Source: an uncultured Chromatiales bacterium
GTDB lineage: Bacteria > Pseudomonadota > Gammaproteobacteria > SZUA-140
Direction of reading: 5' to 3'
DNA length: 64,000 nt
Assembly (NCBI GenBank): GCA_964388175.1
Contig: CAYLYS010000004.1
Span: forward strand, 2,347 to 66,346
Shown here piece by piece: positions 8,855 through 24,777 of the stretch. Each line of letters begins with the position of its first letter. Positions within the stretch are counted from its first letter, which is position 1. A program made the position numbers and the translations under genes. The notes under the pieces were generated by a model. It was not told where the DNA came from and ran no database searches. It saw only the letters and a list, made by a program, of their open reading frames with translations.

Positions 8855-9613
8855 TCATCGGCCTATGGGTATGGTCAGATCCCGCGCCGCCGAAGCACTA
8901 CCTGGAGCAGCGACCGGCGCATCACGATCCGGCAGATTGCGGTCCACCCATTCACGGGTTCTTTCTTCTATCCACTGACGCTCGTGCTCCGGCAAGGGGC
9001 CGCGCGCGATCCGCACATCCCACTCCCACAGCGCCGAGCGCGCCTGACGCACGAAAGGATCGTCCTCTGGCGCGAGATGGATATAAGTGCGCATCGCACC
9101 CAGGGCGCCTTCCAGATCCTCGAGCGCTTCCAGCGCCACCGCCAATCCCCAATAGGCATTGCCCTGAAAAGGCTGCAGTTCGGTGGCGGCGAGGAAGAAA
9201 TCGCGCGCCGTGTCGTAACGCTCGAGTCCGAGCAGCGCATAGCCGAGATTGACATAGGCCTCCGGCAGACGCGGAGAGAGCGCGATGACGCGCTCGAGCG
9301 CGACGATGGCTTCCTCGTACCGGCGCGCGTGCAGCATGACCACGGCCTGCTCGAAACGCTGCTCGATCTCGGCCATGCGCGGATCGACCGGCGCCTGGCG
9401 CGATGTCTCTTGCCGCGCCGGCTGCTGCGGCTGCACCGCGGAAGCCGCCGCGACGACACGTGACGGCGATTGTCCGGGAAGATGCGCATTGAGCAGCAGC
9501 GATTTCAGATCGGGCCGCATCGCCAGCATGAAGATGGTGCACAGGATGATGCCGACGATGCTGAGCGACAGCGCCGATATCGCCGATTCATGCGGGTGCC
9601 GGCGCACGCTCAT
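8855..9613 (-). CDS. Membrane-anchored TPR-repeat protein
   Basis: N-terminal TM helix (ISALSLSIVGIILCTIFMLA), then TPR-like repeats (YEEAIVALERVIALSPRLPEAYVNLGYALLGLERYDTARDFF ... GNAYWGLAVAL). ATGA overlap with the ccsA stop. Confidence 0.6.
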   Translation of the reverse strand: MSVRRHPHESAISALSLSIVGIILCTIFMLAMRPDLKSLLLNAHLPGQSPSRVVAAASAVQPQQPARQETSRQAPVDPRMAEIEQRFEQAVVMLHARRYEEAIVALERVIALSPRLPEAYVNLGYALLGLERYDTARDFFLAATELQPFQGNAYWGLAVALEALEDLEGALGAMRTYIHLAPEDDPFVRQARSALWEWDVRIARGPLPEHERQWIEERTREWVDRNLPDRDAPVAAPGSASAARDLTIPIGR

Positions 9614-10470
9614 ATCACGCCCTTGTGCGCCGCTTCGCTGTAGAACGGCGTACCGAAATAGGTGAAGAAGGCGAAAGCGAACACGCCGATGATGGTCGCC
9701 GCGCCCACGCGCGGCGCAATGTTATAGGTGAAGCGCACGTGGATGGCGAGACCGAGCAGCAGCCAGTTGAGAAACGACGAGGTTTCGAGCGCATCCCAGG
9801 CCCAGTAGCGTCCCCAGGCATCCTGGGCCCAGACCGCGCCGGCGATCAGCATCAGGCTTTCGAAAACCAGCGCCAGCAGCATGAAGCGCCAGGCCACGGT
9901 ATCGAGTACGTCGTCGCCGGGCATGTGGCGGAAGAGATAGCGGAAACCTACCACGTCGCGCAACAGAATGATGCCGGCAAGACCGGTGCCGATGAGGCAA
10001 AAAGCGAGGAAGAATTTGCCGAAAATGACGTGCGCCCATTTCCAGTCGTGATAATAGGTCGGCGGGAAGGGGCTGGCGGCGGGATCGACCGTCACCACCC
10101 AGGCGCTCATGACCAGCAGGATCGGCAACACCACGACGGCTGTCGGCCTGATCAGGGGAATGCGCCAATAGACCACGGTGTATACCAGCCCGAGACTGAA
10201 CAGCTGGCTGATGAGCAGTTCGAACAGATCGACGAAAGGTCCGTGCCCCACCCGCAGCCAGCGCTCCGTCAGGGCGATCGTCAGCAGAATGACCGCCGCG
10301 GCGAGCAGCGTGAGCACATAGGTTTCCGGACGCCGGGAAAGCACGGCAGCGGTGCTGGTACGTCCTCCCGCGCGCAGTACGCCATGGGCGGCCAGCGCCA
10401 TTGCCAGCGCATAGCTGGCTATGCCCGCATACAGCCATGGCAGTTCCGACACCATGGTTTCCGTGTTCAT
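9610..10470 (-). CDS. ccsA: Cytochrome c-type biogenesis protein CcsA/ResC (System II heme-handling, WWD domain)
   Basis: Tryptophan-rich WWD motif WGRYWAWDALE and polytopic membrane topology. Start at MNTETMVSEL (ATG 10470, with GAGAGGA upstream). ATGA overlap with the resB stop. Confidence 0.85.
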   Translation of the reverse strand: MNTETMVSELPWLYAGIASYALAMALAAHGVLRAGGRTSTAAVLSRRPETYVLTLLAAAVILLTIALTERWLRVGHGPFVDLFELLISQLFSLGLVYTVVYWRIPLIRPTAVVVLPILLVMSAWVVTVDPAASPFPPTYYHDWKWAHVIFGKFFLAFCLIGTGLAGIILLRDVVGFRYLFRHMPGDDVLDTVAWRFMLLALVFESLMLIAGAVWAQDAWGRYWAWDALETSSFLNWLLLGLAIHVRFTYNIAPRVGAATIIGVFAFAFFTYFGTPFYSEAAHKGVI

Positions 10471-11498
10471 AGCGTTTTTCCTCTCGCCACATCGGATGCC
10501 GCATGCTTGCGGTCGGCCTCGCGGGCAATGGCATAGGTATGAACGGTGCCGAACTTGCGCCAGAAATGCGCGGCGAGCCCGAATACCGTGATGAACGCGA
10601 CGATGAACAGCCACTGCAAGGTCGGATCATAATACAACTTATAGCCCATCCAGCTCGACAGACGCTCATAACGCAGAAAACCGTCATCGAGCCGGATCGA
10701 TTGCCCCTGCGCCAGCTCCACGCGCTCATCTCCTGCGCGCACCACCAGCATGCCGCGCGCGTTCGCCGGCTCCAGGCGCCAGTCGGTCTGCGGATCCATG
10801 CCCGTTTCCAGTTGCAGCCAGAAGCGGATTTCCTGATCTCCCGGCCCCGGCACCCAGCGGTTCGCCTGGCGATGCTCGAACAGCGGATACGAGGGCATGT
10901 GAATGGCGCCGGTGACGGGCACGCCGGCGTCCGGCGTCCAGGTCAGGATGGCGGCAAAACCTTTGTTGAACGTGGTATAGAAGCGATAGCCGTCGAGCAC
11001 CAGCGGCGTATGGTCGCCGATCACCCGATGCTCCCAACCACCGCGGCCATCGGCAACGGCAATCTGGCTGCGCGTCGCGCCGCGCACCATGCCCGTGGAG
11101 TAATCGATGGCATACGGCCCCTGCAGGAAGTGCACGCGCTCGAAGTTGCCGCGGTGCCAGAGCCCCGTGCGGACATCGATCATGTCATCCGGTGAAAATG
11201 CCTGGCCTTCGGCGAGTTCGACGTTGGCTTCGAGGTAGGTCAGCCGGCCGATCGCAACGAGAACGGCGATGGCCAGCAGGCCGATATGGAACACCAGCAG
11301 GCCGCCGCGGCGGTTGATGCGCGGATCGGTGATGATGGCAGCGCACAGATTGATGGACAGCACGGTCAGCGGCGCAACCAACACCCAGACCGGCGTATCG
11401 ACAGGGTTGTCGTAGTTCAGCGCCGCACCCAAGCCGAGGAACACCATACCGAAAACGGTCAGACGCGTCGACGCGAGTTTGCGCAGAGCGCCACTCAT
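10467..11498 (-). CDS. resB: Cytochrome c biogenesis protein ResB/CcsB (System II)
   Basis: About 343 aa. N-terminal TM helices, a large periplasmic domain and a C-terminal TM, as in ResB. Start MSGALRKL at 11498 overlaps the undecaheme stop. Directly upstream of ccsA. Confidence 0.75.
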   Translation of the reverse strand: MSGALRKLASTRLTVFGMVFLGLGAALNYDNPVDTPVWVLVAPLTVLSINLCAAIITDPRINRRGGLLVFHIGLLAIAVLVAIGRLTYLEANVELAEGQAFSPDDMIDVRTGLWHRGNFERVHFLQGPYAIDYSTGMVRGATRSQIAVADGRGGWEHRVIGDHTPLVLDGYRFYTTFNKGFAAILTWTPDAGVPVTGAIHMPSYPLFEHRQANRWVPGPGDQEIRFWLQLETGMDPQTDWRLEPANARGMLVVRAGDERVELAQGQSIRLDDGFLRYERLSSWMGYKLYYDPTLQWLFIVAFITVFGLAAHFWRKFGTVHTYAIAREADRKHAASDVARGKTL

Positions 11499-14251
11499 GG
11501 CAGGTTCACGCAGGCCTCGTTGCTGTTGTTCATCCAATCGACGCCGACGATGGCGTTGCCGGGCGGGCCGGCCGAACCGCAGTTGACGTCCAGCCACTCG
11601 CCGCTGCGGGCGAAGCTGCGGATCTTCAGCGCGGAACCGAGATAGTAAGGCCCCTGATAATAGCGCCCGGTGCCGGACGACGCGAAACCGCTGTAGCGCA
11701 CCTGGGTACCCGGCGGCAGCTCGGCTTCCAGGCCGACGTCGTTGAGGTTGGCGAGGAAGGTCTTGTTCTTCCAGCCGTGCGGAATGGCGATGTGGCAATA
11801 GGTGCAGCGGAAATTCTGCACCACGAAGGCATGGCCCACATGCAGATTGACGCCGAGGAACTGCAGGCAGCCGCCACCTCCCACCGCGCGGCGGAATCCA
11901 CTCAACACCACGTCCGGATTGGGCGACAGCACGCCACGCGCATAGTTCTTGGGATCATGGCAGCGGAAGCACAGGTGATTGGCCGAATCCTCCTCAGTAG
12001 GACGCAAAGTGTTTGTTCCAGTCTGATCGTTCCAGTTGCCCTTGAGCAGGAAATTCTCGTCCGAACCGTGCGGTCCCCAGGGGAAACCATGCTCCCCACC
12101 CTCTGGCACCACGGTGTCACCCCGCGTACGTGAACCATGGCAGTCCGTGCAATACATGGTCTGCGTACCGACCGCCGTATTGAAGGGCGGACGCCAGGCA
12201 TTGCCGTCCGCGCCGCGCACCGCCGGCGTCCGTCCGGTCGGCTGCAGCGTGGGATGCCATGAGCGATGGTTGTTGGTGACGTAGTCGACCAGATTGCCCT
12301 GCGGATCGAGGCGCGAGAACGTCACCACGCCCTGGCCGCCGGAATCGGTCACCGTCGCCGGCACCGGCGCCTGTGCGCCGATATAGGCGCCGGTCGGCGT
12401 TCCCGGCGTGACCTCGCCCTGATGATCGCGCGGCGACTGGAACTCCATGCCCTGGTTGGTGTAATTGAACAGGGAGTTGGTGCCCGCCGGCGTCAGCCCG
12501 GAGGTATATCCCAGCGGCGGCGGAATATCGTAGGCGTAATTCGAGTGGCACTTCATGCACAGCTGATACTCGCGCGTCAGATACGGCGCGCTGACATCGG
12601 TGCTGCCGCCGACACCGGGATCGCCACGCTTGACCTGGAAATCGACCGGAATGCTGCCGAAGGCGGTATTGGCGTAGACCGGCTCGACGCCCCAGATGCC
12701 GCGCAGCACGCCCGAGGCGAGATTGCTCGGCGGAATGCCCGGCGTATGCTCGTGCGTCGGACCCGGATCGGGCACCGTCGGATCGGCGTTGAACAGACGG
12801 GTGCGCTGCACGCGATGCGGATTGTGGCAGTCGGTGCATTCGGCATGACGATTGGCGAGACCGCCGAGGCCGAGCAGTTCGCGCGACTCGATGAAATCCT
12901 GGCCGCGCTGCATGCCCTGCGTCGCGTCGTCGCCGGTGCCGATGTTGTGTACCTCACCCCCCGACAGTTGATCGGTGTTCGAGATCGGCATGTGCCGCGC
13001 CATGGTGGTGAAGTCAGTCTTGATGTCCGGAACTTCGAAGGCCGGATTGCTATTCGGACTGTTCTGTCCCTGCAGCGTCTGCGCGGTCGGCGGCCCGACG
13101 GCAGGATCGCCATGGCAGGCATAGCACACGTTTTCGATCGAGGGGTTGCCGCCCTGGCGGGCGCCGGTGACCGGATCGAGAGGGCCGTCGGTGCCTTCGC
13201 GCAGGATGCGCCGCGAACCCTGTACCGTGTGCGGATCGTGGCAGTTCAGACAGGCCGCCTGCCACACGCGCGTGCCGCGCGGGAATTCGCGCAGATCGGC
13301 GGCCTCGTTCGTATAACGCTCATCCGCCACCGCCGGATTGGCGTGCGCCGAACCGGCCCAGCCTTCCTTGTCGTGGCAGGCGAGGCAGATGATGTCGCGC
13401 TGCGCATCGAACTGTCCCTGCACCGGCGGCTGCTGCTGGAAGCGGTTCACGCGCAGGAACTTGATGTTCTCGCCCGGTACCTGCGAACGCAGATGGGGAT
13501 CGTGGCAGGTGATGCACTCCACCTTGGGACCGACGCCGTCGGCATCGCGTTCGAGCGGCAGATACTGGCCGCGCGGCAGCGGCTGGCGCGCTTCTCCGTC
13601 GATACGGCGCACGCGCTCATCCAGCCATGGCACCGAATTGGGATCGAACAGCTCGCCGTCACGCGCCGCCTGGGCGCTGTCGTAGGTGAAGGAGATCGGA
13701 TGGTCGTTGCTGAGATCGACGCCGAGATGACGGGTGAAGCCGGTCGTCACGCCGTGTCCCTGCGGTATCGTTCCCGGCGGTGAGCTGTCGCCGGCAGGGA
13801 AGGTGAACGGTACCGTGCGACCATCGCGGTTGGGCTGATCGCGATTGAGCACGTTGACCGCGCCGAGGGCAATAGTGCCGTCGTGGCACGACAGACACAG
13901 CTTGGACCGGCCCGTGGGCTGGCCGAGGTCGGTGGCGTCGATGGAACTCGATGAATACGGAATATAGGCCGTCTGCCGCAACTCGCGGTTCCACAGCGGC
14001 GCGTTCTGCGCGGGCGTCGCGCCGTGCGGCGTGTGGCAGAACACGCAGATCTGCGACTCTTCCGTGGCGAAGGCGCGGCGTTCGGTGCCGTCGGGGAGCG
14101 TGATACCAGCGGGCGGAACCGTGGCGGAGAAATTGTGCCGGGTGTTGGCGATGTCGGAGATCGGGGCCGCCGCCGACGCCCACATCGTCCACAGCGCGGC
14201 ACCGATACAGATGGCGGCGCCGGCGACAAAGGTAGACCAGCGACGCATCAC
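11495..14251 (-). CDS. Undecaheme c-type cytochrome, 918 aa, secreted
   Basis: Signal peptide and 11 CxxCH motifs, several in the form CxxCH(D/N)PH: CVFCH, CLSCH, CITCH, CLACH, CLNCH, CYACH, CTDCH, CMKCH, CTDCH, CFRCH, CTYCH. The N-terminal about 90 aa are homologous to the tetraheme protein at 22706..23545. Confidence 0.85.
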   Translation of the reverse strand: MMRRWSTFVAGAAICIGAALWTMWASAAAPISDIANTRHNFSATVPPAGITLPDGTERRAFATEESQICVFCHTPHGATPAQNAPLWNRELRQTAYIPYSSSSIDATDLGQPTGRSKLCLSCHDGTIALGAVNVLNRDQPNRDGRTVPFTFPAGDSSPPGTIPQGHGVTTGFTRHLGVDLSNDHPISFTYDSAQAARDGELFDPNSVPWLDERVRRIDGEARQPLPRGQYLPLERDADGVGPKVECITCHDPHLRSQVPGENIKFLRVNRFQQQPPVQGQFDAQRDIICLACHDKEGWAGSAHANPAVADERYTNEAADLREFPRGTRVWQAACLNCHDPHTVQGSRRILREGTDGPLDPVTGARQGGNPSIENVCYACHGDPAVGPPTAQTLQGQNSPNSNPAFEVPDIKTDFTTMARHMPISNTDQLSGGEVHNIGTGDDATQGMQRGQDFIESRELLGLGGLANRHAECTDCHNPHRVQRTRLFNADPTVPDPGPTHEHTPGIPPSNLASGVLRGIWGVEPVYANTAFGSIPVDFQVKRGDPGVGGSTDVSAPYLTREYQLCMKCHSNYAYDIPPPLGYTSGLTPAGTNSLFNYTNQGMEFQSPRDHQGEVTPGTPTGAYIGAQAPVPATVTDSGGQGVVTFSRLDPQGNLVDYVTNNHRSWHPTLQPTGRTPAVRGADGNAWRPPFNTAVGTQTMYCTDCHGSRTRGDTVVPEGGEHGFPWGPHGSDENFLLKGNWNDQTGTNTLRPTEEDSANHLCFRCHDPKNYARGVLSPNPDVVLSGFRRAVGGGGCLQFLGVNLHVGHAFVVQNFRCTYCHIAIPHGWKNKTFLANLNDVGLEAELPPGTQVRYSGFASSGTGRYYQGPYYLGSALKIRSFARSGEWLDVNCGSAGPPGNAIVGVDWMNNSNEACVNLP

Positions 14252-15312
14252 GCCTCACCCAGGAGTTGGAATATCATGATACGACCGTTGAAAGCATCAG
14301 CGACGTAGATCCGGTCACGGTGATCCGTCCAGACCCCGGCGGGCAGATAGAACTCTCCGATGCCACTGCCGGAACCTCCGATGGCCAGCAGCAGCTCCCC
14401 TCCATCGTTGAATACTAACAGATGGTCATAATAGGATTCCACCACATAGACATTGCCGTGAGAATCCACCGCAACGCCTTTGGGCCGCGGCATATCGCCG
14501 ACGAAAAGGCCACGCCGGCCGAATTCGCGCACGAATTTTCCGTCGGCATCGAAAATCTGCACTCTCGCATTCAGTGTATCGGTGACGATGAGGCGATCGT
14601 CGACGTAGGTGAGATACGTCGGCGCATTGAATTCACCCGCGCCTTCGCCGTGCGCACCGATGCGTCCGAGCAGCTCGCCGGCATCGCTGAAAATCTTGAC
14701 GTCGTGCGCCTGTGCATCGGCGACGAAGATCCGTCCGCGCGCCGCGTCGCGCACCACGCCGACCGGACGCTCCACTTGGCCGAGACCGATGCTGCCGCGC
14801 GGTTCGCCATCAGCACCGAGGCGCACGATCACCTTCAGATCCGCATCGGCGACCAGGATCTCGCCGTTGGCGCCGGGCGCGATGCCGACCGGCGTCATGA
14901 AACGCACCATCGGCCCGGCCGCCTGCCACAGCAACAGCTTGCCCTGTGCTTCGTCGAAAACGAAAATCGCCCCCCGGCTGACGTCGGTGACGAAGATGCG
15001 TCCGTCCTCGCCGACGAAACCGTTCTGCGGCCGCTGCAGGATCATCGGCGTATGCTTGGAACTGCCCAGCCCGACGACCCAGCTCAGCAAACGGCTGCCG
15101 ATACTGCTCACCTTGGACGAAGAAAAATTCTCCTCACCGGTGAGCTGACCGACCAGCGCATAGCGGGCCGTATCCGGCGCCTGGGGCCAGCGGAAACGCT
15201 CGTCTCCGGCGTATTCATACTGCAGCGTGGCGGGTCCGCTGGCGCATCCGGCCATGAACAGACACAGGAACAGAACGAACGGCAGTCCCGCGCGTGCCTG
15301 ACGCACGCTCAT
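14248..15312 (-). CDS. NHL-repeat (six-bladed beta-propeller) lipoprotein
   Basis: Lipobox FMAGC and six NHL-like repeats (e.g. GRIFVADAQAHDVKIF, DRLIVTDTLNARVQIFD, GNVYVVESYYDHLLVF, DRIYVADAFNGRIMIF). ATGA overlaps on both sides. Confidence 0.8.
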   Translation of the reverse strand: MSVRQARAGLPFVLFLCLFMAGCASGPATLQYEYAGDERFRWPQAPDTARYALVGQLTGEENFSSSKVSSIGSRLLSWVVGLGSSKHTPMILQRPQNGFVGEDGRIFVTDVSRGAIFVFDEAQGKLLLWQAAGPMVRFMTPVGIAPGANGEILVADADLKVIVRLGADGEPRGSIGLGQVERPVGVVRDAARGRIFVADAQAHDVKIFSDAGELLGRIGAHGEGAGEFNAPTYLTYVDDRLIVTDTLNARVQIFDADGKFVREFGRRGLFVGDMPRPKGVAVDSHGNVYVVESYYDHLLVFNDGGELLLAIGGSGSGIGEFYLPAGVWTDHRDRIYVADAFNGRIMIFQLLGEA

Positions 15313-16361
15313 CGCACCGCCGGCTCCGCGTCGACAGGCGCCGCCCCCGGCCAGGACGCCAGTGTCAGAATCTGAATGCGGCGGTTCAGGCTGTCGGCGA
15401 CATAGAGGAATCCTTCGTCCAGCCACAGGTCGGTGATGCGGCGGAAGCGGCCCGGCGCCGAACCGTGCCCACCGATGACGCCGATCAATTGGCTGCCCTG
15501 ATAGACCTTGATGTCGTCGCTGAGATAATCCGCGACGAAGGCGCGCTGCTGATGATCGACGACGATCGCCGTGGGGAAGGTAACGGTATCCTGTTGGAAC
15601 GATTCCCGGTACGCGCCATCCGGGCCCATGACCTGGACCCGCGCCGGACCATAGCGGGTGGCGATGTAATAGCCTGCCGGCCCTTGCGCCAGCGCGGTGA
15701 TGCCGAGAAAACGTCCCGCCCCCGCGCCACGCACGCCGATCGCACCCGACAGCAGTCCGGCAGGGTTGTACACCAGCACGTCATCGTTGAAACCATCGGC
15801 GATGAATACATAACCGGTATCGTCGTTGACCACCACGTTCATCGGACGACCGATGTTGATGCGGTCCTCGATGGTTCTGAGCAGGCGGCCATCGGCATCG
15901 AAATGCAAAACCCGGGCGCCGTCGGTATCGGCGAGGTAGAACGACAGATCGCGGTTGAGATGGATATCGGCGGCGTTGCCATGCAGAACGCCCTTGAGAT
16001 CGAGGACCATGCTCAGGCGGTCGAGGCGCCTGTCATATCTGAACAACTGCTGGTGACCGGCATCGACGATGTAGACCAGATGGCCTTTCGCCGCCACCGC
16101 CACGGGTTGCAGCAGCTGCGTGGAGATCGGCCCCGTCAGCATCTGCCATTCTCCGCTGCCGCTGGGCGCGCTGTCGAGCACCTGCCAAAGCTCGCCCGGC
16201 CCGGTCTGCGCCATGGTTTGCGGCGCCGGAGGCGCCGACGGCGGGGCGAAACGGGCAACATCCTCGCGCGTCAAGGCACAGGCCTGCAGCAGCAGGGCGA
16301 GCGCGGCGAAGATCAGCGCAGCAGGGTAACGTCTTGGGGTACGGAATGACATCTGCCGCAA
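15309..16361 (-). CDS. NHL-repeat beta-propeller lipoprotein (second copy)
   Basis: Lipobox LLQAC and NHL-like repeats (GHLVYIVDAGHQQLFRYD, LSFYLADTDGARVLHFD, GYVFIADGFNDDVLVY, GFLYVADSLNRRIQIL). The start (16361 or 16352) overlaps the 3' end of the upstream triheme gene by about 40-50 nt. Confidence 0.75.
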   Translation of the reverse strand: MRQMSFRTPRRYPAALIFAALALLLQACALTREDVARFAPPSAPPAPQTMAQTGPGELWQVLDSAPSGSGEWQMLTGPISTQLLQPVAVAAKGHLVYIVDAGHQQLFRYDRRLDRLSMVLDLKGVLHGNAADIHLNRDLSFYLADTDGARVLHFDADGRLLRTIEDRINIGRPMNVVVNDDTGYVFIADGFNDDVLVYNPAGLLSGAIGVRGAGAGRFLGITALAQGPAGYYIATRYGPARVQVMGPDGAYRESFQQDTVTFPTAIVVDHQQRAFVADYLSDDIKVYQGSQLIGVIGGHGSAPGRFRRITDLWLDEGFLYVADSLNRRIQILTLASWPGAAPVDAEPAVR

Positions 16362-16924
16362 TTCAGCGTGGGAGAGAATGCGACCTTACCATGACAAACG
16401 CCACAGAAGTCGCCCTGGATGATCGCCGACATGGAAACCGGATTGGCGCCGGCTTGCGGAATGAAGATCGCAGGATGGCAATTGGCGCATGTCAGCCACT
16501 CCGTATGCTGCAGATGGGGAAACCGCACCCACGGCATGGACTGCGTATTCCTGAAAATGATATCGAAATCGACCGGGAACATGTCCATGCTGCCGTCGAG
16601 CGAGGTGCGCGGCTCGATCAGCCTGCGCTCCAATGTCTTCACCCAGTCGATCTGCCCGGAACCATCGCGCGGGAAACCGGCCATGGCCTCATACGGCTGC
16701 TGCAGAACGGCAACCGCTTCGCCGCTGGGATCATGGATGCCGTCCTCCGCGACCGGAGCGATATCGCCGCGCATCTGGAAATGGGCGCCGCGCGACCACA
16801 ATGGCGCATCCTGCTCCTGTTGCGGGAATACGCTGCCCGCGGCACCCGCTGCCGCACTGACCGTCAAGGCCGCACATAGCGCCAGCAGACGCCACGCGCT
16901 CAGCGGATGCCCTCTTTTCATCAT
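16313..16924 (-). CDS. Triheme c-type cytochrome (c7/c3-like), periplasmic, copy A
   Basis: Signal peptide, then FPHLQHTEWLTCANCH, CGVCHGK and CGRCHS: three CxxCH motifs with distal His ligands in c7-like spacing. Paralogous to 18614..19264. Confidence 0.8.
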   Translation of the reverse strand: MMKRGHPLSAWRLLALCAALTVSAAAGAAGSVFPQQEQDAPLWSRGAHFQMRGDIAPVAEDGIHDPSGEAVAVLQQPYEAMAGFPRDGSGQIDWVKTLERRLIEPRTSLDGSMDMFPVDFDIIFRNTQSMPWVRFPHLQHTEWLTCANCHPAIFIPQAGANPVSMSAIIQGDFCGVCHGKVAFSPTLNCGRCHSVPQDVTLLR

Positions 16925-18507
16925 CTCACGCCCATCGCCTGCAAAGCGCGCTGAATATTGCTGGTGGCGCCCTGCAGCATGAGTATGGCTTCCTGGTAAT
17001 TACCGCGCGCGGCCTCGGGTTCGGACAAGGCCTTGACCTCTCTCGCCCGGTCGATGAACGGCATGATCAGCTTTCTGGTCTGCTCATTGGGTTCGCGCTG
17101 CTGAATGGCGAGCGGCACCAATCCTTCATAACCGAGGTAGCGCGACAGCTCGTATTCATATTCATCGCGTGGCGTCTGAAACACCAGTTCATGCACGATG
17201 GTCTGTTCGGCCAGCATCTCGGTCAGCGCCGTAGTCAGCGTATTCTGGGCGCCGCCCAGCATGCTGATCGCCTCGTTGTACTTGCCGTCATCGGCAAGCG
17301 ACCTGGCGTTGCTCATGACGCTCTCGATCTGCTTCAGATCGACGGCGCGGACGTTGCTTCGCCCCTTGTTCTTGACCATCTGCTCGTAGTTGCGGCGGTA
17401 CGAGGCCTCGAACCCCTGCACACCCTCATACATCTCCAGGAAACGGGCGCGCTCGGCCTCGCCGCGCGATTCCTGAGGCACCAGCAGGGAAGACTCGCTC
17501 ATCAGCCGCATGGCATCTTCGACCAGAGGCAGCGCATTCTGCTGTTCGCCGGCGGACAGCGCGCCGCGGGCTTGCTCGAAACGCTGCTGCGCATCGCGGT
17601 AGAGAGCGAGCGCGGTCTCGTTGCCGCTGTCGCGGATGCGCGCGGCAGCCGGCGACTGATTGATGAACATGTCGGCGAACTGAATCTTCTGCTGGATCTG
17701 CTGCGCCGATACGTTGCGCTGCTGCGCGCTCTGTGCACCCGCATCCGCGGTTCCCGGCATCTTGCCGCCGCGAGCGGCCTGCAGCTCGGCGATGGACAGA
17801 TTCTCCTGCCCCTCATTGACGATGTAGATCGGGCCACCCATGTTCCGGTGGTTTCGGCACTGGTAATAGAGCAGATCCGGCGCCTGCGCACTCGGCGTGA
17901 ACGTCACCACACCTTCATAGATGAACTGGCCGCTGACGCCATCGACATAGGTCGCGGCACCCCAGCCGACCTCGCTGCCGGAAAGGTAGAAATCGTGCTG
18001 TATGCCGGCATTGACGCTGAAACGATAGGTCTTGCCTCTCACCATCACCAGCGGCTTGCCCTGCACGCCATTGACTACGAATCCCATGCGATGGCCGACG
18101 CCATAGTAGGGATGCGAAGTATCCTTGGTCTCGGTGACGACATTGAACAGGAAAGGCGAGCTCGGCGGCGCCTCGCGCGCCGGCACCGCGGCAGGGACAG
18201 GAACGGATGAAGGCGCCGACGCCGACTCGGCTGGAACCGGAGCTGGTGCCGCTTCCACCGTCGCCGCGGAGGGTTCGGGTTGCAGCGGCACGACCTCGGC
18301 GACAGGCGTCTCCTCGGCGGGCGCTGGCTGGAGAAGCGCCGACGATGGGATGACCACTGTCACCTCCTGGGGCGAAGCAGCAACGGCAGACGGCGCCGAC
18401 GCTGCGGTCGGAGCGGAAGCAGGCGCATCGCTTCCGGTCGTGGCGCAGGCGGACAGCGTCAGCGCGATGATTGCCGGGAACAGCAGGCTAGGGAAACGGG
18501 ATCGCAT
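16921..18507 (-). CDS. Lipoprotein with Pro/Ala-rich linker, cupredoxin-like (putative type-1 copper) domain and long alpha-helical C-terminal domain
   Basis: Lipobox LTLSAC with a strong SD (AGGGAGGA) before ATG 18507. About 110 aa P/A/S-rich linker. Domain with candidate copper ligands (His in IQHDFY; C-x2-H-x2-M in YYQCRNHRNMGG). About 300 aa Q/A/R/E-rich helical tail. Confidence 0.55.
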   Translation of the reverse strand: MRSRFPSLLFPAIIALTLSACATTGSDAPASAPTAASAPSAVAASPQEVTVVIPSSALLQPAPAEETPVAEVVPLQPEPSAATVEAAPAPVPAESASAPSSVPVPAAVPAREAPPSSPFLFNVVTETKDTSHPYYGVGHRMGFVVNGVQGKPLVMVRGKTYRFSVNAGIQHDFYLSGSEVGWGAATYVDGVSGQFIYEGVVTFTPSAQAPDLLYYQCRNHRNMGGPIYIVNEGQENLSIAELQAARGGKMPGTADAGAQSAQQRNVSAQQIQQKIQFADMFINQSPAAARIRDSGNETALALYRDAQQRFEQARGALSAGEQQNALPLVEDAMRLMSESSLLVPQESRGEAERARFLEMYEGVQGFEASYRRNYEQMVKNKGRSNVRAVDLKQIESVMSNARSLADDGKYNEAISMLGGAQNTLTTALTEMLAEQTIVHELVFQTPRDEYEYELSRYLGYEGLVPLAIQQREPNEQTRKLIMPFIDRAREVKALSEPEAARGNYQEAILMLQGATSNIQRALQAMGVR

Positions 18508-18560
18508 TCCTCCCTCATATACTCTGGCATACATTCGGGCACACACTCAGACAGACATCC

Positions 18561-18596
18561 GGCGGAGACAGAAGGCCCGCCCTGAACGGGCGGGCC
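18561..18596 (-). terminator. GC-rich hairpin (GGCCCGCCC-TGAAC-GGGCGGGCC) followed on the transcript by a U-rich tract (UUCUGUCUCC); candidate intrinsic terminator or attenuator
   Basis: Perfect 9-bp stem read at 18574-18596, 18 nt downstream of the triheme B stop codon and upstream of the cupredoxin gene RBS. Confidence 0.4.
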
Positions 18597-18613
18597 TGAC
18601 TACCAAAACAATT

Positions 18614-19264
18614 TTATCTCCAAGGATTCTTGACGGTCGCCTCGCTCAACGGTGGCTTCCAGTCCGCGGGCTTGGGCTTGGAATGACACTTCCCGCAGGT
18701 CGTCGTGGTCACCGGGAAGGACACCTTGCCATGGCACACGCCGCATTTCTCACCCAGCAGAATAGCAGACATGTTGATCTGATTGGATCCCGCCTGCGGC
18801 ACGAAGATCGCCGGATGGCAGTTCGAGCAGAACAGCCATTCCGTATGCTGCCGATGCGGGAACACCACATCCGGCATCGATGCCTTCACCGGTCTGACGA
18901 TATCGAGATCCATGACGAAGGGCTCTTCCGATGAATCGATGCGATCCCAGCGCGGGCGCAGCAGACCTTGATCCAGCGCCTGCACCCAGTCGATACGGTT
19001 GCCGAACACGGTACGCGGCAATCCCTGATAGGCTTCTTCCGGCGGCTGCAGCGAGAAGGTCGCCTCGTTGCTGGTGTCGTGGATACCGTCTTCCCACGGC
19101 GGCGGATTGGCGCTGTCACGCTTCTTCAGGTTGACGTTGAACTCATTGGCGGAAGAAACGCGCGATTCCTGCGCCGATACCGACTGTATCTGCCAAGGCA
19201 GCGCAAAAACCACCAGTGCAGCGGACAGACCGAGTGCGATCGAGACTTTCTTGATGATATTCAT
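18614..19264 (-). CDS. Triheme c-type cytochrome (c7/c3-like), copy B
   Basis: Signal peptide, then FPHRQHTEWLFCSNCH, CGVCHGK and CGKCHSK. Clear paralog of copy A (shared DGIHD, IDWVQAL and HTEWL blocks). Confidence 0.8.
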   Translation of the reverse strand: MNIIKKVSIALGLSAALVVFALPWQIQSVSAQESRVSSANEFNVNLKKRDSANPPPWEDGIHDTSNEATFSLQPPEEAYQGLPRTVFGNRIDWVQALDQGLLRPRWDRIDSSEEPFVMDLDIVRPVKASMPDVVFPHRQHTEWLFCSNCHPAIFVPQAGSNQINMSAILLGEKCGVCHGKVSFPVTTTTCGKCHSKPKPADWKPPLSEATVKNPWR

Positions 19265-19287
19265 GGCTCACTCTCTCCCGTCCGTCA

Positions 19288-19737
19288 TTATTGCTGCGAC
19301 TGTGCGCCGGCTGCGGGGTCCAGCGGCTTGAATGCCGGGGCCACGAGACGCTGCACGGTGCTGCCGTGGAAGTGAGTGGGAGTGCCGGGAATACCGGAAT
19401 GGCACATGGCACAGTTTTCGACCGACCAGGCCACCTCGCCGTTGTGGCAGGCGCCGCAGAACTGGCCGTCCACGATCTTGGCCATCGTGATCTGATTACC
19501 GCCCGCCTTGAACTGGAAGCCCAGGTCGGCGTGGCAAACCTTGCAGCGGAAACGCACGCGATGGAACCAGTGCGGGAACACCACTGGACGCATGGCCGCG
19601 GCATCGGAATAGTTATTGATGACGACGTCGCCGTATTCCGCCTGTGCTGGCTGCGGCGCCGCCCATATCCACAAACCGATCAGGAGCCCCGCAAACAGCG
19701 AGATGCGCGCAGGCATCCGAGAGATCATCGATGGCAT
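19288..19737 (-). CDS. Triheme c-type cytochrome, copy C (divergent, 149 aa)
   Basis: Signal peptide, then FPHWFHRVRFRCKVCH, CGACHNG and CAMCHSG. Same heme spacing logic but low identity to A and B. Confidence 0.8.
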   Translation of the reverse strand: MPSMISRMPARISLFAGLLIGLWIWAAPQPAQAEYGDVVINNYSDAAAMRPVVFPHWFHRVRFRCKVCHADLGFQFKAGGNQITMAKIVDGQFCGACHNGEVAWSVENCAMCHSGIPGTPTHFHGSTVQRLVAPAFKPLDPAAGAQSQQ

Positions 19738-19814
19738 AACAAACCCCTCCTACTTGCTTTCCAACCTTTATTTTTTATGCAGACACAGGCCTGGCCGGGC
19801 GAGCGAATCCGGGC

Positions 19815-21578
19815 TCAGAAACGACGGTTTATCTGAAAATAGATAATATTGTAATTGTCGTCATTCTGATCGCCGGAGAAACTGATGTAGCGCCAGCTCA
19901 GACTGGTATCCACCAGCCCGATCACGTAGTCCAGTCGGTTCTCCCACTCTGCGCGGTCTATCCCCTCGTCCGTGGCCGCGCGCGCAATACGCAAATCCGA
20001 GTTGAACCGAAGCTGGGCTATGTCGAACAAGCCCATGTGCCGGTAGGTCACCTGGCCGGTTGCGGTTACTGTATCATTATCCCGCAGCCCGTTGAAGTCC
20101 CGGCTCACCATTTGCACCGTCAGATTTCCGCTCAACATGCTGTACAGACTGAGCGTCTGATTGCGCATGAACTGCAGATTGGCGAATTGCTGATTGTCGT
20201 CCTGATCGCCGAATCCGCGGGAATCCGACAATGTCAGGTGGATCATCGTCGTCCCGCTCTCACCGTGCCGGTCCCATGACAGGCTGCCGGTGTGATCCAG
20301 GCGCTGGGTATTGATATCATCGGCCGTATCCGCCGTTTGATAAACCGTGCTAACCGACTGGCTCAGACTCAGGCGGAAAGTCCCCCGTCCATCCGTCATC
20401 CACATGCGCTGCGCATCGTGCCCGAGGCGGACCAGCCCGGTCAGCAAGTCCTCGCTGCCGGTATTCTGGTTCTGGGCCGATGCCTGAGCATGCCAGTTAT
20501 AGGTGAAATGGGTGAAAAGCGGGCGCAGATCGGATTGATAGAGCGCGCCGAGGCGCTGCCGGGAGGTCATATCCACACCGGCGGTATTGGTGTCCGTGAC
20601 ATCGACATTGGCGTCGAAACGCAGATTCTTCGTGTACTGATAAAAAGCGCCGGCGGTGGCGCTGACGCTGGCCTGATCGATCTCCCTGCCAGCGTTACTC
20701 GCCGCCATGTCGAAGAGGCGCACGCCCGCGCTCACCGACAGCGGTCTGTCGACCGGCCGCCAGAACAGAAAGCTCGACACCTGGGTATACGTTATATCCG
20801 CCCTGGCCAGATTGGTGCTGCCGGGCGCCTGTGCCGACCGGGTATCGGAATCGTAGTAGCTGACCATGGTATCGAAGCGCAGCGCCCGATCCGGATGGTA
20901 GAAGTGCTCGACGTTGAGCAGCTTGATATCGTTGTCCTGATCGATGGTCGCCAGCTCTATTTGCTGGTAGCTGGTCCTGGCGCTCAGGGTATGCTGCGGG
21001 CGGCGCATATTGTATTCCAGCCCGATCAGCTGATCCTTGTAGCTCTCGATACCGCGCGACTCCCAGGTGCCATGATCGAAGCGCAACTGAAAACGATCGC
21101 CGACTTCGGTCAGATAGCTCTGGCGCAGCGACAGCCGCCGCGTCTGAAAGTCATAACTGCTGAGCCCGGACACGGGATTGGGCAGCGTGACCGAATCGAC
21201 GCGGCTGTCGCTCATGCGGTAGGACAGCGAAAAAGGGGTACGGCTTTGCGGCAGGACGTTGAGATCGAGATCGAGACCGAGAATGGTCGTGCGCGATGAG
21301 GCGCCCGCATCATAGCTGCTGGCATCCTGGGTCGCGCGCAGCCCCGCGGACAGATTGGCGAACCACGGCTCCCACAGATAGGCCTGCGCGTTCAGCGCGG
21401 CACGCAACTGGTTGCTGTGCGCATCGCTGTTGTCGCTGCCCGTGATCGAACGGAAGGTATAGCCGACACTGCCGGAAACGTCGCTCACTCCGACCGCCGC
21501 CGCCGCAGCCTGCGCACTCCACAGCGCCGCGGCCACCGCGCACAGCATCGAACCGAGTTGACGCTTCCCCTCTGGCAT
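19815..21578 (-). CDS. Putative outer-membrane beta-barrel protein (587 aa, no heme-binding motif)
   Basis: Signal peptide (MLCAVAAALWSAQAAAAAV). Sequence rich in alternating hydrophobic/polar stretches and Y/W/F. C-terminal aromatic residue (...YFQINRRF). Only one Cys in the whole protein, so no CxxCH. Confidence 0.55.
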   Translation of the reverse strand: MPEGKRQLGSMLCAVAAALWSAQAAAAAVGVSDVSGSVGYTFRSITGSDNSDAHSNQLRAALNAQAYLWEPWFANLSAGLRATQDASSYDAGASSRTTILGLDLDLNVLPQSRTPFSLSYRMSDSRVDSVTLPNPVSGLSSYDFQTRRLSLRQSYLTEVGDRFQLRFDHGTWESRGIESYKDQLIGLEYNMRRPQHTLSARTSYQQIELATIDQDNDIKLLNVEHFYHPDRALRFDTMVSYYDSDTRSAQAPGSTNLARADITYTQVSSFLFWRPVDRPLSVSAGVRLFDMAASNAGREIDQASVSATAGAFYQYTKNLRFDANVDVTDTNTAGVDMTSRQRLGALYQSDLRPLFTHFTYNWHAQASAQNQNTGSEDLLTGLVRLGHDAQRMWMTDGRGTFRLSLSQSVSTVYQTADTADDINTQRLDHTGSLSWDRHGESGTTMIHLTLSDSRGFGDQDDNQQFANLQFMRNQTLSLYSMLSGNLTVQMVSRDFNGLRDNDTVTATGQVTYRHMGLFDIAQLRFNSDLRIARAATDEGIDRAEWENRLDYVIGLVDTSLSWRYISFSGDQNDDNYNIIYFQINRRF

Positions 21579-21626
21579 GAATTGCGTATCCCACGTCGGC
21601 CGCCCCGCGGCCTATTCAAGTTGTTA

Positions 21627-22622
21627 TTATTCCGATGGCAACGAATCGGCCGCGCCCACGCCGATCAATTCCTCGTTGACCGTGATCGCCGTCGTCTCAT
21701 GCAGGCGCGCCAGTGCATCCTGCCATGCGCGCTCGCTCAGCTCCCGGTGCAACAGATCACCGGCGCGCTCCGCCACCAGATCGAATGCGTTCAGCTGCGG
21801 AACGACGCGCTCGTCCAGCCGGAAAAGCGCATAGCCCTGCAGCATCTGCAGCGGCGCCGAGAACGTGCCGGGCTGCATGGCATCCAGCACCTCCTGCGCC
21901 TCGCGCGCCAGCATGCCCTTGTGGACATAGCCGAGATCACCGCCCTGCGCCGCCGATCCATCCGCCGAATGCAGCCGCGCCAGATCGGAAAATGACGCTC
22001 CGTCTTTCAGTTTCGCATACAGGCGCTGCGCCTCTTCCTGCGCCGCCTCCCATACAGCGCCACCGGACCAGGGTTCGACCCTGAGCAGTATCATCGACAC
22101 ACGCAGGCGTTCCGGCGTCGTGAATTTGTCCGGCTGCGCCCGGTAATACGCCAGCACGGCCTCCCGATCCGGCGCCGGCACCTGCTCGATCCGCTGCCGC
22201 AGCTGCGCGATGACGCTGTCCCCCATCAACTGCGCCCGCAGGGCTTCGCGCGCGGCAACCGGGTCGGCGCTGGCGGCGATGCGCTCGGTCAGCATGGTCA
22301 TCCGGGCATCCATCCACCGCTCATCCGGCGCGATGCCCTGGCGTTCCGCCTCCTGCAGCAACAGCAATCTGTCGACCATCGCCGCGGCGACTTCACGCCG
22401 GAAGGCAGCGATATCGGCGGCGGGCACCTGACCATGATAGAAGCGCTGTCGGACGCCGGCATGGAAATTCGCCTCGAATTCATCGATCGGGATCACCGTT
22501 CCGCCGACCACGGCAAAGACATCGGCACGATCCGGCGTTTCCTCCTGCTTGTCCTCCACACCGGCATGGCCCGCTGTCGTCAGCAGCAGAAACAAGGCCA
22601 TCGTGATCGAGAAAATCCGCAT
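21627..22622 (-). CDS. Periplasmic peptidyl-prolyl cis-trans isomerase (SurA/PpiD-like parvulin)
   Basis: Signal peptide MRIFSITMALFLLLTTAGHA, a SurA-like N-terminal chaperone region and a parvulin signature (SDGSAAQGGDLGYVHKGMLAREAQEVL ... FSAPLQMLQGYALFRL). The start could also be the Met at 22634. Confidence 0.7.
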   Translation of the reverse strand: MRIFSITMALFLLLTTAGHAGVEDKQEETPDRADVFAVVGGTVIPIDEFEANFHAGVRQRFYHGQVPAADIAAFRREVAAAMVDRLLLLQEAERQGIAPDERWMDARMTMLTERIAASADPVAAREALRAQLMGDSVIAQLRQRIEQVPAPDREAVLAYYRAQPDKFTTPERLRVSMILLRVEPWSGGAVWEAAQEEAQRLYAKLKDGASFSDLARLHSADGSAAQGGDLGYVHKGMLAREAQEVLDAMQPGTFSAPLQMLQGYALFRLDERVVPQLNAFDLVAERAGDLLHRELSERAWQDALARLHETTAITVNEELIGVGAADSLPSE

Positions 22623-22705
22623 CCGAGAATACATGCCAGTCCGGAGCCATGGGGCGGCGGCATTCTGCCCGCAGCATGCCCTGCCGCCCAGGTAGCGCTC
22701 GCCCG

Positions 22706-23545
22706 TCATTTATTGTGGCAAGTCAGACACACTGAACTGCCCACGGGGTCTACGCGCAAAAACAGAGGGTTGTAATCGACATGGGGATCATGGCAGGAAG
22801 CGCATTCCACATAGGGCTGCGGTTCGCCGACGAACACCCCGCGCGTTGCGACCCGGGTGTACAGCTTCATGTCGGACTTTTCGAAATCCGACGATCCCCC
22901 GACGGTACGGGTGTTGACCCACCAGAATCTTTCGCTGCCGACGATCTTGGTTTCCGCCTGATGGAAATCCGGATCGCGCCCCGGCCCGTGCGGATTGGCC
23001 TGGGAATAGCCGCCGCCGGCATACTGCACCGAAACCGGATGATCGTCGCGCAGATCCTTGCCGAGATTGGTGATGACCGTCACCGGGCCGATCCGCCCGC
23101 CCACCGGCGCGGCCTGGCCGCTCCAGACTCCCGCCCTGAAGGCCCAGTTCTCCGCGCCCGAGCCCGGCTCGTTGATCAGTGCGTCCATGGCCTGCGTCCC
23201 GTCGTGACAGGACAGGCAGGCGATCGATACCGAGCCGATCGGCTCGATGGCCGCATCGAGACTGGTGGAACCCAGCTGGTCATAGGTGGTGAATCCGGCA
23301 CTGCCGGGATCGATGTAGCGATTCCACAGAGGAACGGCGACCGAGGCATCGGCGCCGTGCGGCGTATGGCAGAAAACGCAGATCTCCGACGTGCCGCTGA
23401 AATTGCTCGCGGCATTGACGCCGGTACTGCCAAGATTATGCTTGGTATTGAAGATACCGGCGTTGACGGCGTGCGCCGACAGCAGTACGGCCCCGAGCAT
23501 GAGAACCAGCCAGGAACGTCTGCAAGTATGGTGACTTGCTCGCAT
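22706..23545 (-). CDS. Tetraheme c-type cytochrome, secreted
   Basis: Signal peptide and CVFCHTPHG, CLSCHDG, CASCHDPH, CLTCHNK. The N-terminal module NTKHN...CVFCHTPHG...PLWNR...CLSCHDG matches the N-terminus of the undecaheme. Confidence 0.8.
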   Translation of the reverse strand: MRASHHTCRRSWLVLMLGAVLLSAHAVNAGIFNTKHNLGSTGVNAASNFSGTSEICVFCHTPHGADASVAVPLWNRYIDPGSAGFTTYDQLGSTSLDAAIEPIGSVSIACLSCHDGTQAMDALINEPGSGAENWAFRAGVWSGQAAPVGGRIGPVTVITNLGKDLRDDHPVSVQYAGGGYSQANPHGPGRDPDFHQAETKIVGSERFWWVNTRTVGGSSDFEKSDMKLYTRVATRGVFVGEPQPYVECASCHDPHVDYNPLFLRVDPVGSSVCLTCHNK

Positions 23546-23670: not shown

Positions 23671-24777
23671 TCACAGCCCCAGGTTGAAACGATGGATGAT
23701 ACCGGCGGAAACGGTGCTGACATCCTTGCCCGACGCTGCCGGACGAATCACGCTGCCGGCATCGTCATGATCGGGATGCAGGGCATAGCCGGACTGATCA
23801 TCATTCAGCAGGGTCGCGCCGATCAGATAGAACTCCGTGCGCGGCGACATCGCATAGGAAAACCCGAGCGCCACCATCTGCGCGCCGCTGTCGGGACGCT
23901 GATCCAGTTCGCCCAACTGACCATAGGCCAGCTTCCAGGTGAAATTGCCTGCCACATGCGACAGGCTGCCGTACCAGGCATCGCGCTCGCCATCACCGCC
24001 GGCAAGGCGGCTGCCGTTGTCGGCCTGCTCCCAGATCAGCGCGGCGCGCGTGCCCTGGCCGAAATCCCAGCCGAACACCGCTTTCGTCGCCGAGGCATCA
24101 CGCTGATCGACGGCTTCGACCTGGCCCAGCTTTTCATAACCGATACCGAGATACAGCGGGCCGCTGACGAAGGCCAGCGTGGCGCTGTAACCGTTGAGAT
24201 CGGAAGCCTCGTCCGTACGCGGCAGTTCGTCGCGCTCACGGTCGGCGATGTAGGCGAGCGCGAAACGGATGCGCCTCTGCTCCGGCGTGGCATAGTACAG
24301 AATGTTCCGCGCCCGCTCATTGAACAGCGACTGTCCGTCGACGGCGCCGACGATGGCGCTGTGATCGGCACGGGTATTGCGGAAGATATCCAACTCGTCG
24401 CTCAGCGCGCGATAAGGCGTGACGTGACGCCCGGCCAGCAGCACGCCGAGACTGCCCTCGAGCCCGAGGAAACTGTCACGCCCCTCTTCACTCCAGGCGC
24501 CATCGTCGAGATCGACGCCCTGCTCGAACTGCCAGATGACGGAAAGCCGGTCGCGCAGACGCTCGCTGCCACGCAAACCGATGAACGACTTGTTGCTGCT
24601 CACCAGCAAAGCGTATTTTTTGACCGGCTCCTCTCCCGCAAGCGCATCGCCGTTGCCGATGACATCCACCGAGACGTGCGCCGTGCCATAGAGCTCGATC
24701 GCACTCTGTGCCGCTCCCGGCAGCGTGAGCGCCGCGATTGCCAGACACCATATCGGCGCTTTGGAATTCATATTCAC
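23671..24777 (-). CDS. General porin (Gram-negative trimeric porin family)
   Basis: Signal peptide LAIAALTLPGAAQSA, 16-strand-porin-like amphipathic pattern and C-terminal ...HRFNLGL. Confidence 0.7.
   Translation of the reverse strand: MNMNSKAPIWCLAIAALTLPGAAQSAIELYGTAHVSVDVIGNGDALAGEEPVKKYALLVSSNKSFIGLRGSERLRDRLSVIWQFEQGVDLDDGAWSEEGRDSFLGLEGSLGVLLAGRHVTPYRALSDELDIFRNTRADHSAIVGAVDGQSLFNERARNILYYATPEQRRIRFALAYIADRERDELPRTDEASDLNGYSATLAFVSGPLYLGIGYEKLGQVEAVDQRDASATKAVFGWDFGQGTRAALIWEQADNGSRLAGGDGERDAWYGSLSHVAGNFTWKLAYGQLGELDQRPDSGAQMVALGFSYAMSPRTEFYLIGATLLNDDQSGYALHPDHDDAGSVIRPAASGKDVSTVSAGIIHRFNLGL

Follow-up and report, generated by a model that had tools for sequence, protein, structure and literature searches.

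The run of cytochrome genes on the minus strand at 11495-23545 of the window (the whole 64,000-nucleotide stretch analysed here, from contig CAYLYS010000004.1 of an uncultured Chromatiales bacterium) raises the question of whether its products carry electrons across the outer membrane (OM) and, if so, with what kind of machinery. By translation, motif counts, and Pfam and NCBIfam scans, the interval contains ten co-directional genes; an earlier note on this DNA, which had described the region as a candidate extracellular electron-transfer conduit of an uncharacterised type, gave eleven, while its own list sums to ten. The ten genes encode 24 CxxCH motifs (4 + 3 + 3 + 3 + 11), in agreement with the roughly 24 c-type haems estimated there. 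Judged by sequence, the cluster is an orthologue of the known uet ("undecaheme electron transfer") cluster, another copy of it and not a new kind. What the analysis adds is the homology of uet to OmcE of Geobacter, especially in UetJ, which carries a fused OmcE-like module, and we hold it moderately probable that this uet orthologue encodes a haem-based conduit that leads across the OM and beyond the cell surface and is built from OmcE-family parts.

The genes uetABCDEFGHIJ were described for Ca. Tenderia electrophaga and the Tenderiales (Eddie et al. 2017 mSystems; 2022 mSphere, bioRxiv 10.1101/2022.05.06.490989) in the order tetrahaem, peptidyl-prolyl isomerase (PPIase), 28-strand barrel, two trihaems, cupredoxin, trihaem, two NHL proteins and undecahaem, followed by ccsA/B, nrfG and batDBA (Eddie et al. 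2022). The same ten proteins are found in the same order in the window, including a UetJ with 11 CxxCH motifs, a UetC predicted to have 28 strands, three c7 trihaems, the cupredoxin protein and two NHL proteins, and they are likewise accompanied by ccsB, ccsA, an nrfG-like tetratricopeptide repeat (TPR) gene and a convergent bat/moxR operon. The "undecaheme electron transfer" pathway mentioned in the earlier note is this published cluster, and the label "uncharacterised type" overstates the novelty, as the cluster was named and modelled between 2017 and 2022, was found later in Gallionella (Hoover et al. 2023, PMC10734462) and was probably described independently as occ. The occA-S cluster of Ca. 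Dechloromonas occultata (Szeinbaum et al. 2020, bioRxiv 10.1101/695007) has 19 genes, with 10 cytochromes, and is highly expressed by this organism during Mn(III) reduction; it probably corresponds to uet, judged from the published description rather than from sequence.

Relatives of UetJ were collected by a scan of one genome per species, which found at least 200, and 79 loci were kept. The best match, from an uncultured gammaproteobacterium, is 82% identical, and UetJ is 52-56% identical in metagenome-assembled genomes (MAGs) labelled Ca. Tenderia sp. (L042, L048 and L052), of which L048 has all ten genes in order; the type genome, CP013099, lay outside the comparison. All window proteins were compared to the 79 loci by tblastn, and gene order was counted in those 52 that extend 9.9 kb or more upstream of uetJ. 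The ten-gene order was colinear in 49 of these 52, with all ten genes detected in 40 and uetB present in 43. Among the 63 loci with enough downstream DNA, ccsB was present in 57, nrfG in 56 and ccsA in 56-57. The identity of uetD in relatives reaches 71-93%, and the moxR/bat neighbourhood is the same in L001, L002, L004, L073 and others. Because the order is colinear in 49/52 loci and the accessory genes are kept in 56-57/63, uet is a conserved unit whose members are not scattered in related genomes, an arrangement far beyond chance. Together with the gene overlaps described below, this synteny upholds the earlier picture of cytochrome, barrel and NHL genes in one tightly coupled cluster, which is also conserved and is of a kind that has been suggested to serve extracellular electron transfer. 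The distribution includes betaproteobacterial loci (Ramlibacter, Ideonella and Usitatibacter), and the UetC barrel family has 855 representatives at 50% identity.

Extra gene copies were seen in some of these loci. Two tandem uetJ genes, each ~48-50% identical to UetJ of the window, are present in L064, L071, L072, L074 and L075. Two UetF-like genes are present in betaproteobacterial and other loci, namely L062 (Ramlibacter albus GTP1), L065, L066 and L067 (Ideonella sp. A 288), and in L062, L065 and L067 the interval from uetG to the next NHL gene or genes contains a further trihaem as well. Among these four carriers are two cultured strains, which would be possible models for genetics; Eddie et al. 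also list Leptothrix cholodnii as a carrier.

OmcE-family cytochromes and propeller lipoproteins

A phmmer search of the PDB with UetA returned only two matches, 7TFS (E=1.5e-24) and 9YUQ (E=1.7e-23), with two aligned stretches spanning all four haem motifs. The first of these entries, 7TFS, is the tetrahaem filament of Geobacter sulfurreducens OmcE, a nanowire structure reportedly described by Wang et al. in 2022. The second, 9YUQ, is a filament of an OmcE homologue from Desulfuromonas soudanensis (Petersen et al. 2025, bioRxiv 10.1101/2025.10.22.684050). The UetA family hidden Markov model (HMM) matched Geobacter OmcE at 1.6e-33, and in an alignment of 58 UetA-type and OmcE-type proteins the four CxxCH motifs, the histidines H36, H63, H169 and H255, and the C-terminal CHxK end, including its lysine, are invariant. 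In UetA, H36 lies within N-T-K-H near the mature N-terminus; in OmcE, one of the four distal histidines is donated to the neighbouring subunit. Compared with OmcE, UetA has an insert of ~60 aa. These alignments place UetA in the OmcE family of tetrahaem cytochromes.

The same two structures were matched by the undecahaem UetJ, 7TFS with E=1.5e-16 over residues 14-258 and 9YUQ over the first ~250 residues. Residues 1-296 of UetJ can be aligned over the full length of UetA and of OmcE, up to and including the CLxCHxK terminus, and UetJ and UetA are 31% identical (E 4e-24). This region is followed by ~620 residues with seven more haems. All 11 CxxCH motifs are invariant in 83 of 84 orthologues, in which 30 histidines are also conserved. 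By sequence comparison, then, UetJ consists of an OmcE-like four-haem module that is complete (residues ~30-296) and a seven-haem extension. Orthology of UetJ with the nine- and eight-haem cytochromes encoded near Geobacter omcE was considered and rejected, as the hhalign probabilities of 97.5 and 83 came from short haem-motif stretches only. A literature search on OmcE with Tenderia, Tenderiales or Uet found no published link between uet and OmcE: the uet papers never mention OmcE, the reviews that cite both do not connect them, and the report on OmcE homologues never mentions Tenderia, Uet or NHL (Petersen et al. 2025, bioRxiv 10.1101/2025.10.22.684050).

Homology to the nanowire system extends to the lipoproteins. 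In the five omcE loci compared, from Geobacter and relatives, the order is a PpcA-like c7 trihaem, ResB, CcsA, a nine-haem and an eight-haem cytochrome, an NHL lipoprotein, OmcE and an unannotated barrel of ~750 aa. UetI is 33% identical to this NHL lipoprotein over 326 aa (E 2.6e-45; HMM 2.1e-67), the UetH family HMM matched it at 4.7e-32, and the HMM of the uet CcsA matched Geobacter CcsA at 4e-25. The lipobox cysteine is present in 50 of 66 orthologues of UetH and in all 66 of UetI. On this evidence from sequence, UetH and UetI are both homologous to the NHL lipoprotein encoded beside omcE. Nanowire-competent OmcE homologues, which have been reported in Pseudomonadota, were recognised in that work by a large barrel and a propeller lipoprotein encoded nearby (Petersen et al. 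2025, bioRxiv 10.1101/2025.10.22.684050); UetA has neighbours of both kinds, with UetC, UetH and UetI in the same cluster.

Two further observations concern these gene sets. One omcE locus from a Joint Genome Institute (JGI) metagenome (L084, 10850-13537) has two additional genes between those for OmcE and the barrel, one for a 521-aa protein with no Pfam match and one for a second NHL lipoprotein, which fits the two-propeller-lipoprotein pattern described for minimal omcE clusters. The ccsB product of the window has 343 aa versus ~450 aa in the Geobacter loci, and its match to the Pfam ResB model is confined to the middle part; the short form is kept in 57 of 63 loci and appears to be a shortened ResB peculiar to uet clusters.

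Among the remaining uet products, UetF has a lipobox (LSAC) and a linker rich in Ala and Pro, followed by a cupredoxin-like domain and, at the C-terminus, a helical one. H184, C230, H233 and M236 occur without exception in the 57 orthologues, and the ligand spacing, C-x2-H-x2-M, is amicyanin-like; by these residues, the predicted ligand set is that of type-1 (blue) copper. The domain matched the Pfam At5g54830-like family in 16 of 16 members (best 4e-10), and a profile search of the PDB gave weak matches to laccase (E 0.18) and pseudoazurin (E 0.57) that were not significant. The lipoprotein calls made earlier for this 541-aa protein and for both NHL proteins hold, as all three have lipoboxes that are kept in orthologues. 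UetD, UetE and UetG are c7 trihaems with signal peptides, and the trihaem genes rank among those that Tenderia expresses most strongly on a cathode. A role of the PPIase UetB in cytochrome maturation is plausible because a PPIase is documented to act in maturation of the OmcZ nanowire cytochrome.

The proposed conduit and its alternatives

UetC has no Pfam or NCBIfam match and no CxxCH motif; its single cysteine lies in the signal peptide, and its C-terminal residue is Phe. From a 57-sequence alignment, AlphaFold2 (AF2) predicts a 28-strand barrel with a pLDDT of 85.8, short loops and no plug domain, so that the earlier description of a haem-less 587-aa OM barrel is upheld. The best Foldseek match of the model is MtrB (E 2.9e-9, TM 0.49), at a sequence identity of 10%. 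Searches of UetC against the barrel of the Geobacter omcE cluster by BLAST and HMM gave no match, and an N-terminal 'SDAHS' motif common to these two barrels was discarded as probably due to chance.

In the conduit that we favour, the plug-less UetC barrel would be filled by a protein, and UetJ, with 11 haems and long enough to span UetC, would be the wire through the membrane, as MtrA is in MtrB. Outside the cell, UetA would stack on the OmcE-like module of UetJ, as an oligomer or as an OmcE-type filament, and lead to a cathode or mineral, while the OM lipoproteins UetH and UetI would assemble or anchor the complex. On the inner side, UetD, UetE and UetG, together with UetF, would carry electrons across the periplasm to alternative complex III (ACIII) and to bc1 or cbb3 oxidases. 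From the functions of their families, CcsBA System II, the TPR protein, the DsbA-like protein and UetB would mature the 24-haem load. The flow would be inward, as electron uptake in this autotroph-like gammaproteobacterium, and the hardware itself should be reversible.

Several points weigh against this account. The barrels of the two systems could not be related by hhalign, which gave a probability of 8% for UetC and the Geobacter barrel (a 5-sequence Geobacter profile was also tried) and 4% with a 140-sequence UetC profile, and UetC has 587 aa compared to ~750 aa for the omcE-cluster barrel. UetA has over 7000 protein matches at E<=1e-5, and because so many proteins resemble UetA, an OmcE-like sequence is no proof of a filament; the OmcE ligand pattern is kept also in the non-polymerising N-terminal module of UetJ. 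The AF2 model of UetA, built without haems, has a pLDDT of 50.8, which is too poor for a fold test. In Tenderia, uetJ is not differentially expressed with electrode potential, and the uet literature holds no biochemical or genetic data on Uet proteins.

Some of the same evidence speaks for the published Uet model, that of Eddie et al. 2022, which has no filament and to which we give appreciable, if minority, weight. According to this model, UetJ, or UetJ with UetA, would sit in UetC as a discrete MtrAB(C)-like porin-cytochrome complex, UetA would be a monomeric extracellular or periplasmic partner, and the likeness to OmcE would reflect a shared four-haem fold only. In its favour, UetC has 28 strands in the model and MtrB as best Foldseek match, the Paired_CXXCH family is very large, an OmcE-like module is also found inside UetJ, where the same polymerisation is impossible, and UetC is smaller than the Geobacter barrel and shows no detectable homology to it. 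However, UetA keeps the length class of OmcE, the position of the mature N-terminal His, the CHxK end and all eight His ligands, and an omcE-type NHL lipoprotein is present in the cluster. In addition, Eddie et al. 2022 themselves allow polymers, to explain the conductivity of biocathode biofilms.

Within the conduit of OmcE-family parts that we prefer, a more specific arrangement is tentative and, on present evidence, rather unlikely: that UetA polymerises into an insulated, OmcE-type haem filament on the surface of electron-uptake (cathode- or iron-oxidising) Gammaproteobacteria, with UetJ as the dedicated terminal subunit that joins the filament to UetC or caps its tip. If this were true, uet would be the first case of a cytochrome nanowire that serves electron uptake, and the protein at the base or tip of the filament, which omcE operons are said to lack (Petersen et al. 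2025, bioRxiv 10.1101/2025.10.22.684050), would have its first candidate in UetJ. The homology to nanowire proteins might in addition account for the conductivity over long distances that has been reported for biocathode biofilms of Tenderia.

The direction of flow was weighed separately. Inward flow is favoured because ACIII, rpe and a HAD gene lie in the gene context and because the closest described carriers are cathode or iron oxidisers; it is not settled, because occ is expressed during Mn(III) reduction, which also counts against the proposed uptake. The same hardware operating outward, as a terminal pathway that passes electrons to Mn(III), Fe(III) or an anode outside the cell, would accommodate this high expression of occ (with its 922-aa undecahaem, NHL and PPIase genes), the outward function of OmcE in Geobacter and the existence of heterotroph carriers, e.g., Ramlibacter and Ideonella. 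We consider it improbable for this cluster, given the autotroph-like context of the window (ACIII, rpe and the phosphoglycolate-phosphatase-like HAD gene), the lifestyle of those closest carriers, and a high-potential blue-copper protein in the chain that fits uptake towards oxidases, and given that the equation of occ with uet rests on description, not sequence.

It is very improbable that the cluster encodes a periplasmic multihaem complex of respiration that reduces or oxidises, e.g., nitrite, sulfite, tetrathionate or hydroxylamine, together with its accessories, and this reading was rejected, since the weak NCBIfam likeness of UetJ to NrfB (16.8 versus a cut-off of 166.6) and to DmsE-type cytochromes (33.8 versus 192) is sub-threshold and, although an nrfG-like TPR gene and System II biogenesis occur as in some nrf loci, no CxxCK, other catalytic haem motif or CX3-4CH motif was found, the cluster has no molybdopterin, sirohaem or Fe-S catalytic subunit, a periplasmic enzyme needs neither a plug-less 28-strand OM barrel nor three OM lipoproteins, and nothing in the cluster matches a characterised respiratory reductase.

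For the uptake of electrons by lithoautotrophs from solids such as cathodes, Fe(II) minerals and corroding steel, uet is one of few candidate pathways, and it is widespread, with at least 200 species-level genomes. Because key parts of uet are homologous to a structurally solved nanowire system, what was a list of hypothetical proteins becomes a set of specific experiments.

Gene inventory, junctions and neighbourhood

All real genes within 8143-23545 are on the minus strand. The window has a G+C content of ~63%, and because of this, long spurious open-reading frames (ORFs) occur on both strands; those such as 12266-13783 (+) and 9722-10729 (-) were set aside as artefacts of the 63% G+C.

Table 1 Features of the uet cluster and its surroundings, with positions in the window
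Feature	Position	Strand	Properties and matches
uetA, tetrahaem cytochrome	22706-23545	-	279 aa, secreted, 4 CxxCH, Paired_CXXCH
uetB, SurA-like parvulin PPIase/chaperone, periplasmic	21627-22709	-	Pfam Rotamase 1e-15, SurA_N_3
uetC, haem-free outer-membrane beta-barrel	19815-21578	-	587 aa; 28 strands predicted by AF2
uetD, c7-type trihaem cytochrome, periplasmic	19288-19737	-	149 aa, 3 CxxCH; TIGR04257 7.9e-19, PF14522
uetE, c7-domain trihaem with ~100 aa N-terminal extension	18614-19264	-	216 aa, 3 CxxCH; TIGR04257 1.6e-16
uetF, lipoprotein with Cu-site motif	16921-18546	-	541 aa, lipobox LSAC
uetG, c7-domain trihaem, UetE paralogue	16313-16924	-	203 aa, 3 CxxCH; TIGR04257 6.8e-18
uetH, NHL beta-propeller lipoprotein	15309-16352	-	Pfam NHL and DUF5128; lipobox LQAC
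uetI, six-bladed NHL beta-propeller lipoprotein	14248-15312	-	DUF5128 3.5e-25, NHL 6e-19; lipobox MAGC
uetJ, undecahaem cytochrome	11495-14251	-	918 aa, 11 CxxCH
ccsB, short ResB-like, System II cytochrome c biogenesis	10467-11498	-	Pfam ResB 6.4e-10
ccsA, System II haem lyase subunit	9610-10470	-	Pfam Cytochrom_C_asm 2.8e-16
nrfG-like TPR protein	8855-9613	-	TPR families
DsbA-like thiol-disulfide oxidoreductase, CQTC motif	8143-8844	-	Pfam DSBA 4.4e-15
Convergent moxR-DUF58-DUF4381-batA-batB-batD operon	1300-8100	+	Pfam AAA_3/MoxR, DUF58, DUF4381, VWA x2, BatD
GC-rich stem-loop directly 3' of uetE	18575-18591	-	terminator-like site
Alternative complex III, actA-F	39168-46663	-	Pfam

ATGA or GTGA start/stop overlaps are present at uetF/G, uetH/I, uetI/J, uetJ/ccsB, ccsB/ccsA and ccsA/TPR, confirming each of the six overlaps listed in the earlier note; uetA and uetB overlap too if the longest UetB start is used, and uetG and uetH overlap by ~40 nt. 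From these arrangements, seven junctions are predicted to be translationally coupled. The true start of UetB is probably an internal ATG near 22634, and that of UetF an internal ATG at 18507.

The stem-loop after uetE recurs in relatives. A hairpin of -20 kcal/mol or lower within 110 nt 3' of uetE was present in 78% of 54 loci, compared to 0% of shuffles and 8-24% after uetA, uetC and uetJ. In the uetE-uetF spacers of loci L001-L079, its position is conserved and its sequence is not. This suggests a conserved attenuator or mRNA-stabilising element between uetA-E and uetF-J, which it may divide into two expression units, and such an element would fit the very high trihaem expression in Tenderia.

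The ACIII operon, which is complete, lies ~16 kb from uet and comprises ActA (c7-like multihaem), ActB (molybdopterin-like and Fe-S), ActC (NrfD), ActD and ActE (cytochrome c), with a 347-aa ORF lacking a Pfam match in the ActF position. In the Tenderiales model, ACIII is the entry point to the quinone pool (Eddie et al. 2022), and it is probably the inner-membrane partner of uet here. The rpe gene and the phosphoglycolate-phosphatase-like HAD gene, a Calvin-cycle-associated pair, are located at 37547-39007 (-). Housekeeping genes, namely trpE/G/D/C, hisA/F/H and rplM-rpsI, are also found, at 33527-37557 (-), 51599-53835 (-) and 26419-27306 (-), and because of this context the location of uet is consistent with a chromosomal, not a mobile, one.

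Two general porin genes (Porin_4 and OmpL-like/Porin_O_P) lie directly upstream of uetA at 23671-24777 (-) and 24942-25964 (-); the first of them has 51-65% identity in the closest relatives, L001-L006, and is weak (32-37%) or absent elsewhere. At the other end, a DsbA-like gene follows nrfG in ~24 of the 79 loci, the closest relatives L001-L015 among these, and it falls outside the published 18-gene uet block. Its product (8143-8844) may be the thiol-redox partner of dedicated System II maturation. Further away, a 417-aa ORF at 32267-33520 (+) matches Pfam TraF_2 (8.8e-42), an OM beta-barrel family named after F-plasmid TraF; it adjoins a Crp-family regulator (31370-32254), and no other sign of a conjugative element was seen nearby.

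Comparison with known systems

The earlier note held that the cluster resembles none of the characterised conduits, and this stands for the ones that it named. With MtrCAB, MtoAB and PioAB, the predicted uet complex would share a large plug-less barrel that sheathes a wire of about ten haems. It differs in that the score to TIGR03508 (the MtrA/DmsE decahaem) is 33.8 bits versus a cut-off of 192.2, the score to the OmcA/MtrC family is 16.6 versus a cut-off of 209, and there is no match to the MtrB_PioB Pfam family; UetC is predicted to have 28 strands rather than the 26 of MtrB, to which its resemblance is structural only. Cyc2 has an N-terminal CxxCH domain fused to its barrel, whereas UetC has no CxxCH. 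For the Geobacter systems OmaB/OmbB/OmcB, ExtABCD and ExtKL, the scores were 24 versus 325 for NF041028 (the GSU2203 family) and 15.6 versus 250 for NF040886 (ExtKL). All scores against the MtrA, MtrC and Geobacter conduit families are far below their cut-offs, the barrel has no Pfam match, and the cluster is not of the MtrCAB/PioAB/MtoAB, Cyc2 or OmaB/OmbB/OmcB kinds. The claim fails for the OmcE system, of which UetA and UetJ 1-296 are cytochrome homologues and UetH and UetI are lipoprotein homologues.

Compared with uet of Ca. Tenderia, the window represents a different uncultured gammaproteobacterial lineage, and it has a DsbA-like gene between nrfG and batD and two porin genes upstream, both of which it has in common with its nearest relatives only. 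The UetH of Tenderia was called cytoplasmic by PSORTb, whereas that of the window lineage has a lipobox. The occ cluster resembles uet in its 922-aa extracellular undecahaem OccP, its 6-NHL repeat proteins, its PPIase, its many cytochromes and its wide occurrence in Betaproteobacteria, and differs in its total of 19 genes and 10 cytochromes and in its expression under Mn(III)-reducing conditions.

The Geobacter omcE cluster differs from uet in gene order and in presumed electron direction, which is opposite. Its barrel has no detectable homology to UetC, and its nine- and eight-haem cytochromes are not UetJ orthologues, with likeness at the level of motifs. It has no PPIase, cupredoxin protein or fused OmcE-like module, and uet in turn has no glycosyltransferase genes. 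The filament has been seen for OmcE of Geobacter and Desulfuromonas and may also be formed by UetA. What the two clusters have in common is OmcE homologues with all haem ligands conserved, in uet represented by UetA and UetJ 1-296, and, around them, c7 trihaem cytochromes, ResB/CcsA, further multihaem cytochromes, an NHL lipoprotein and a large unannotated barrel.

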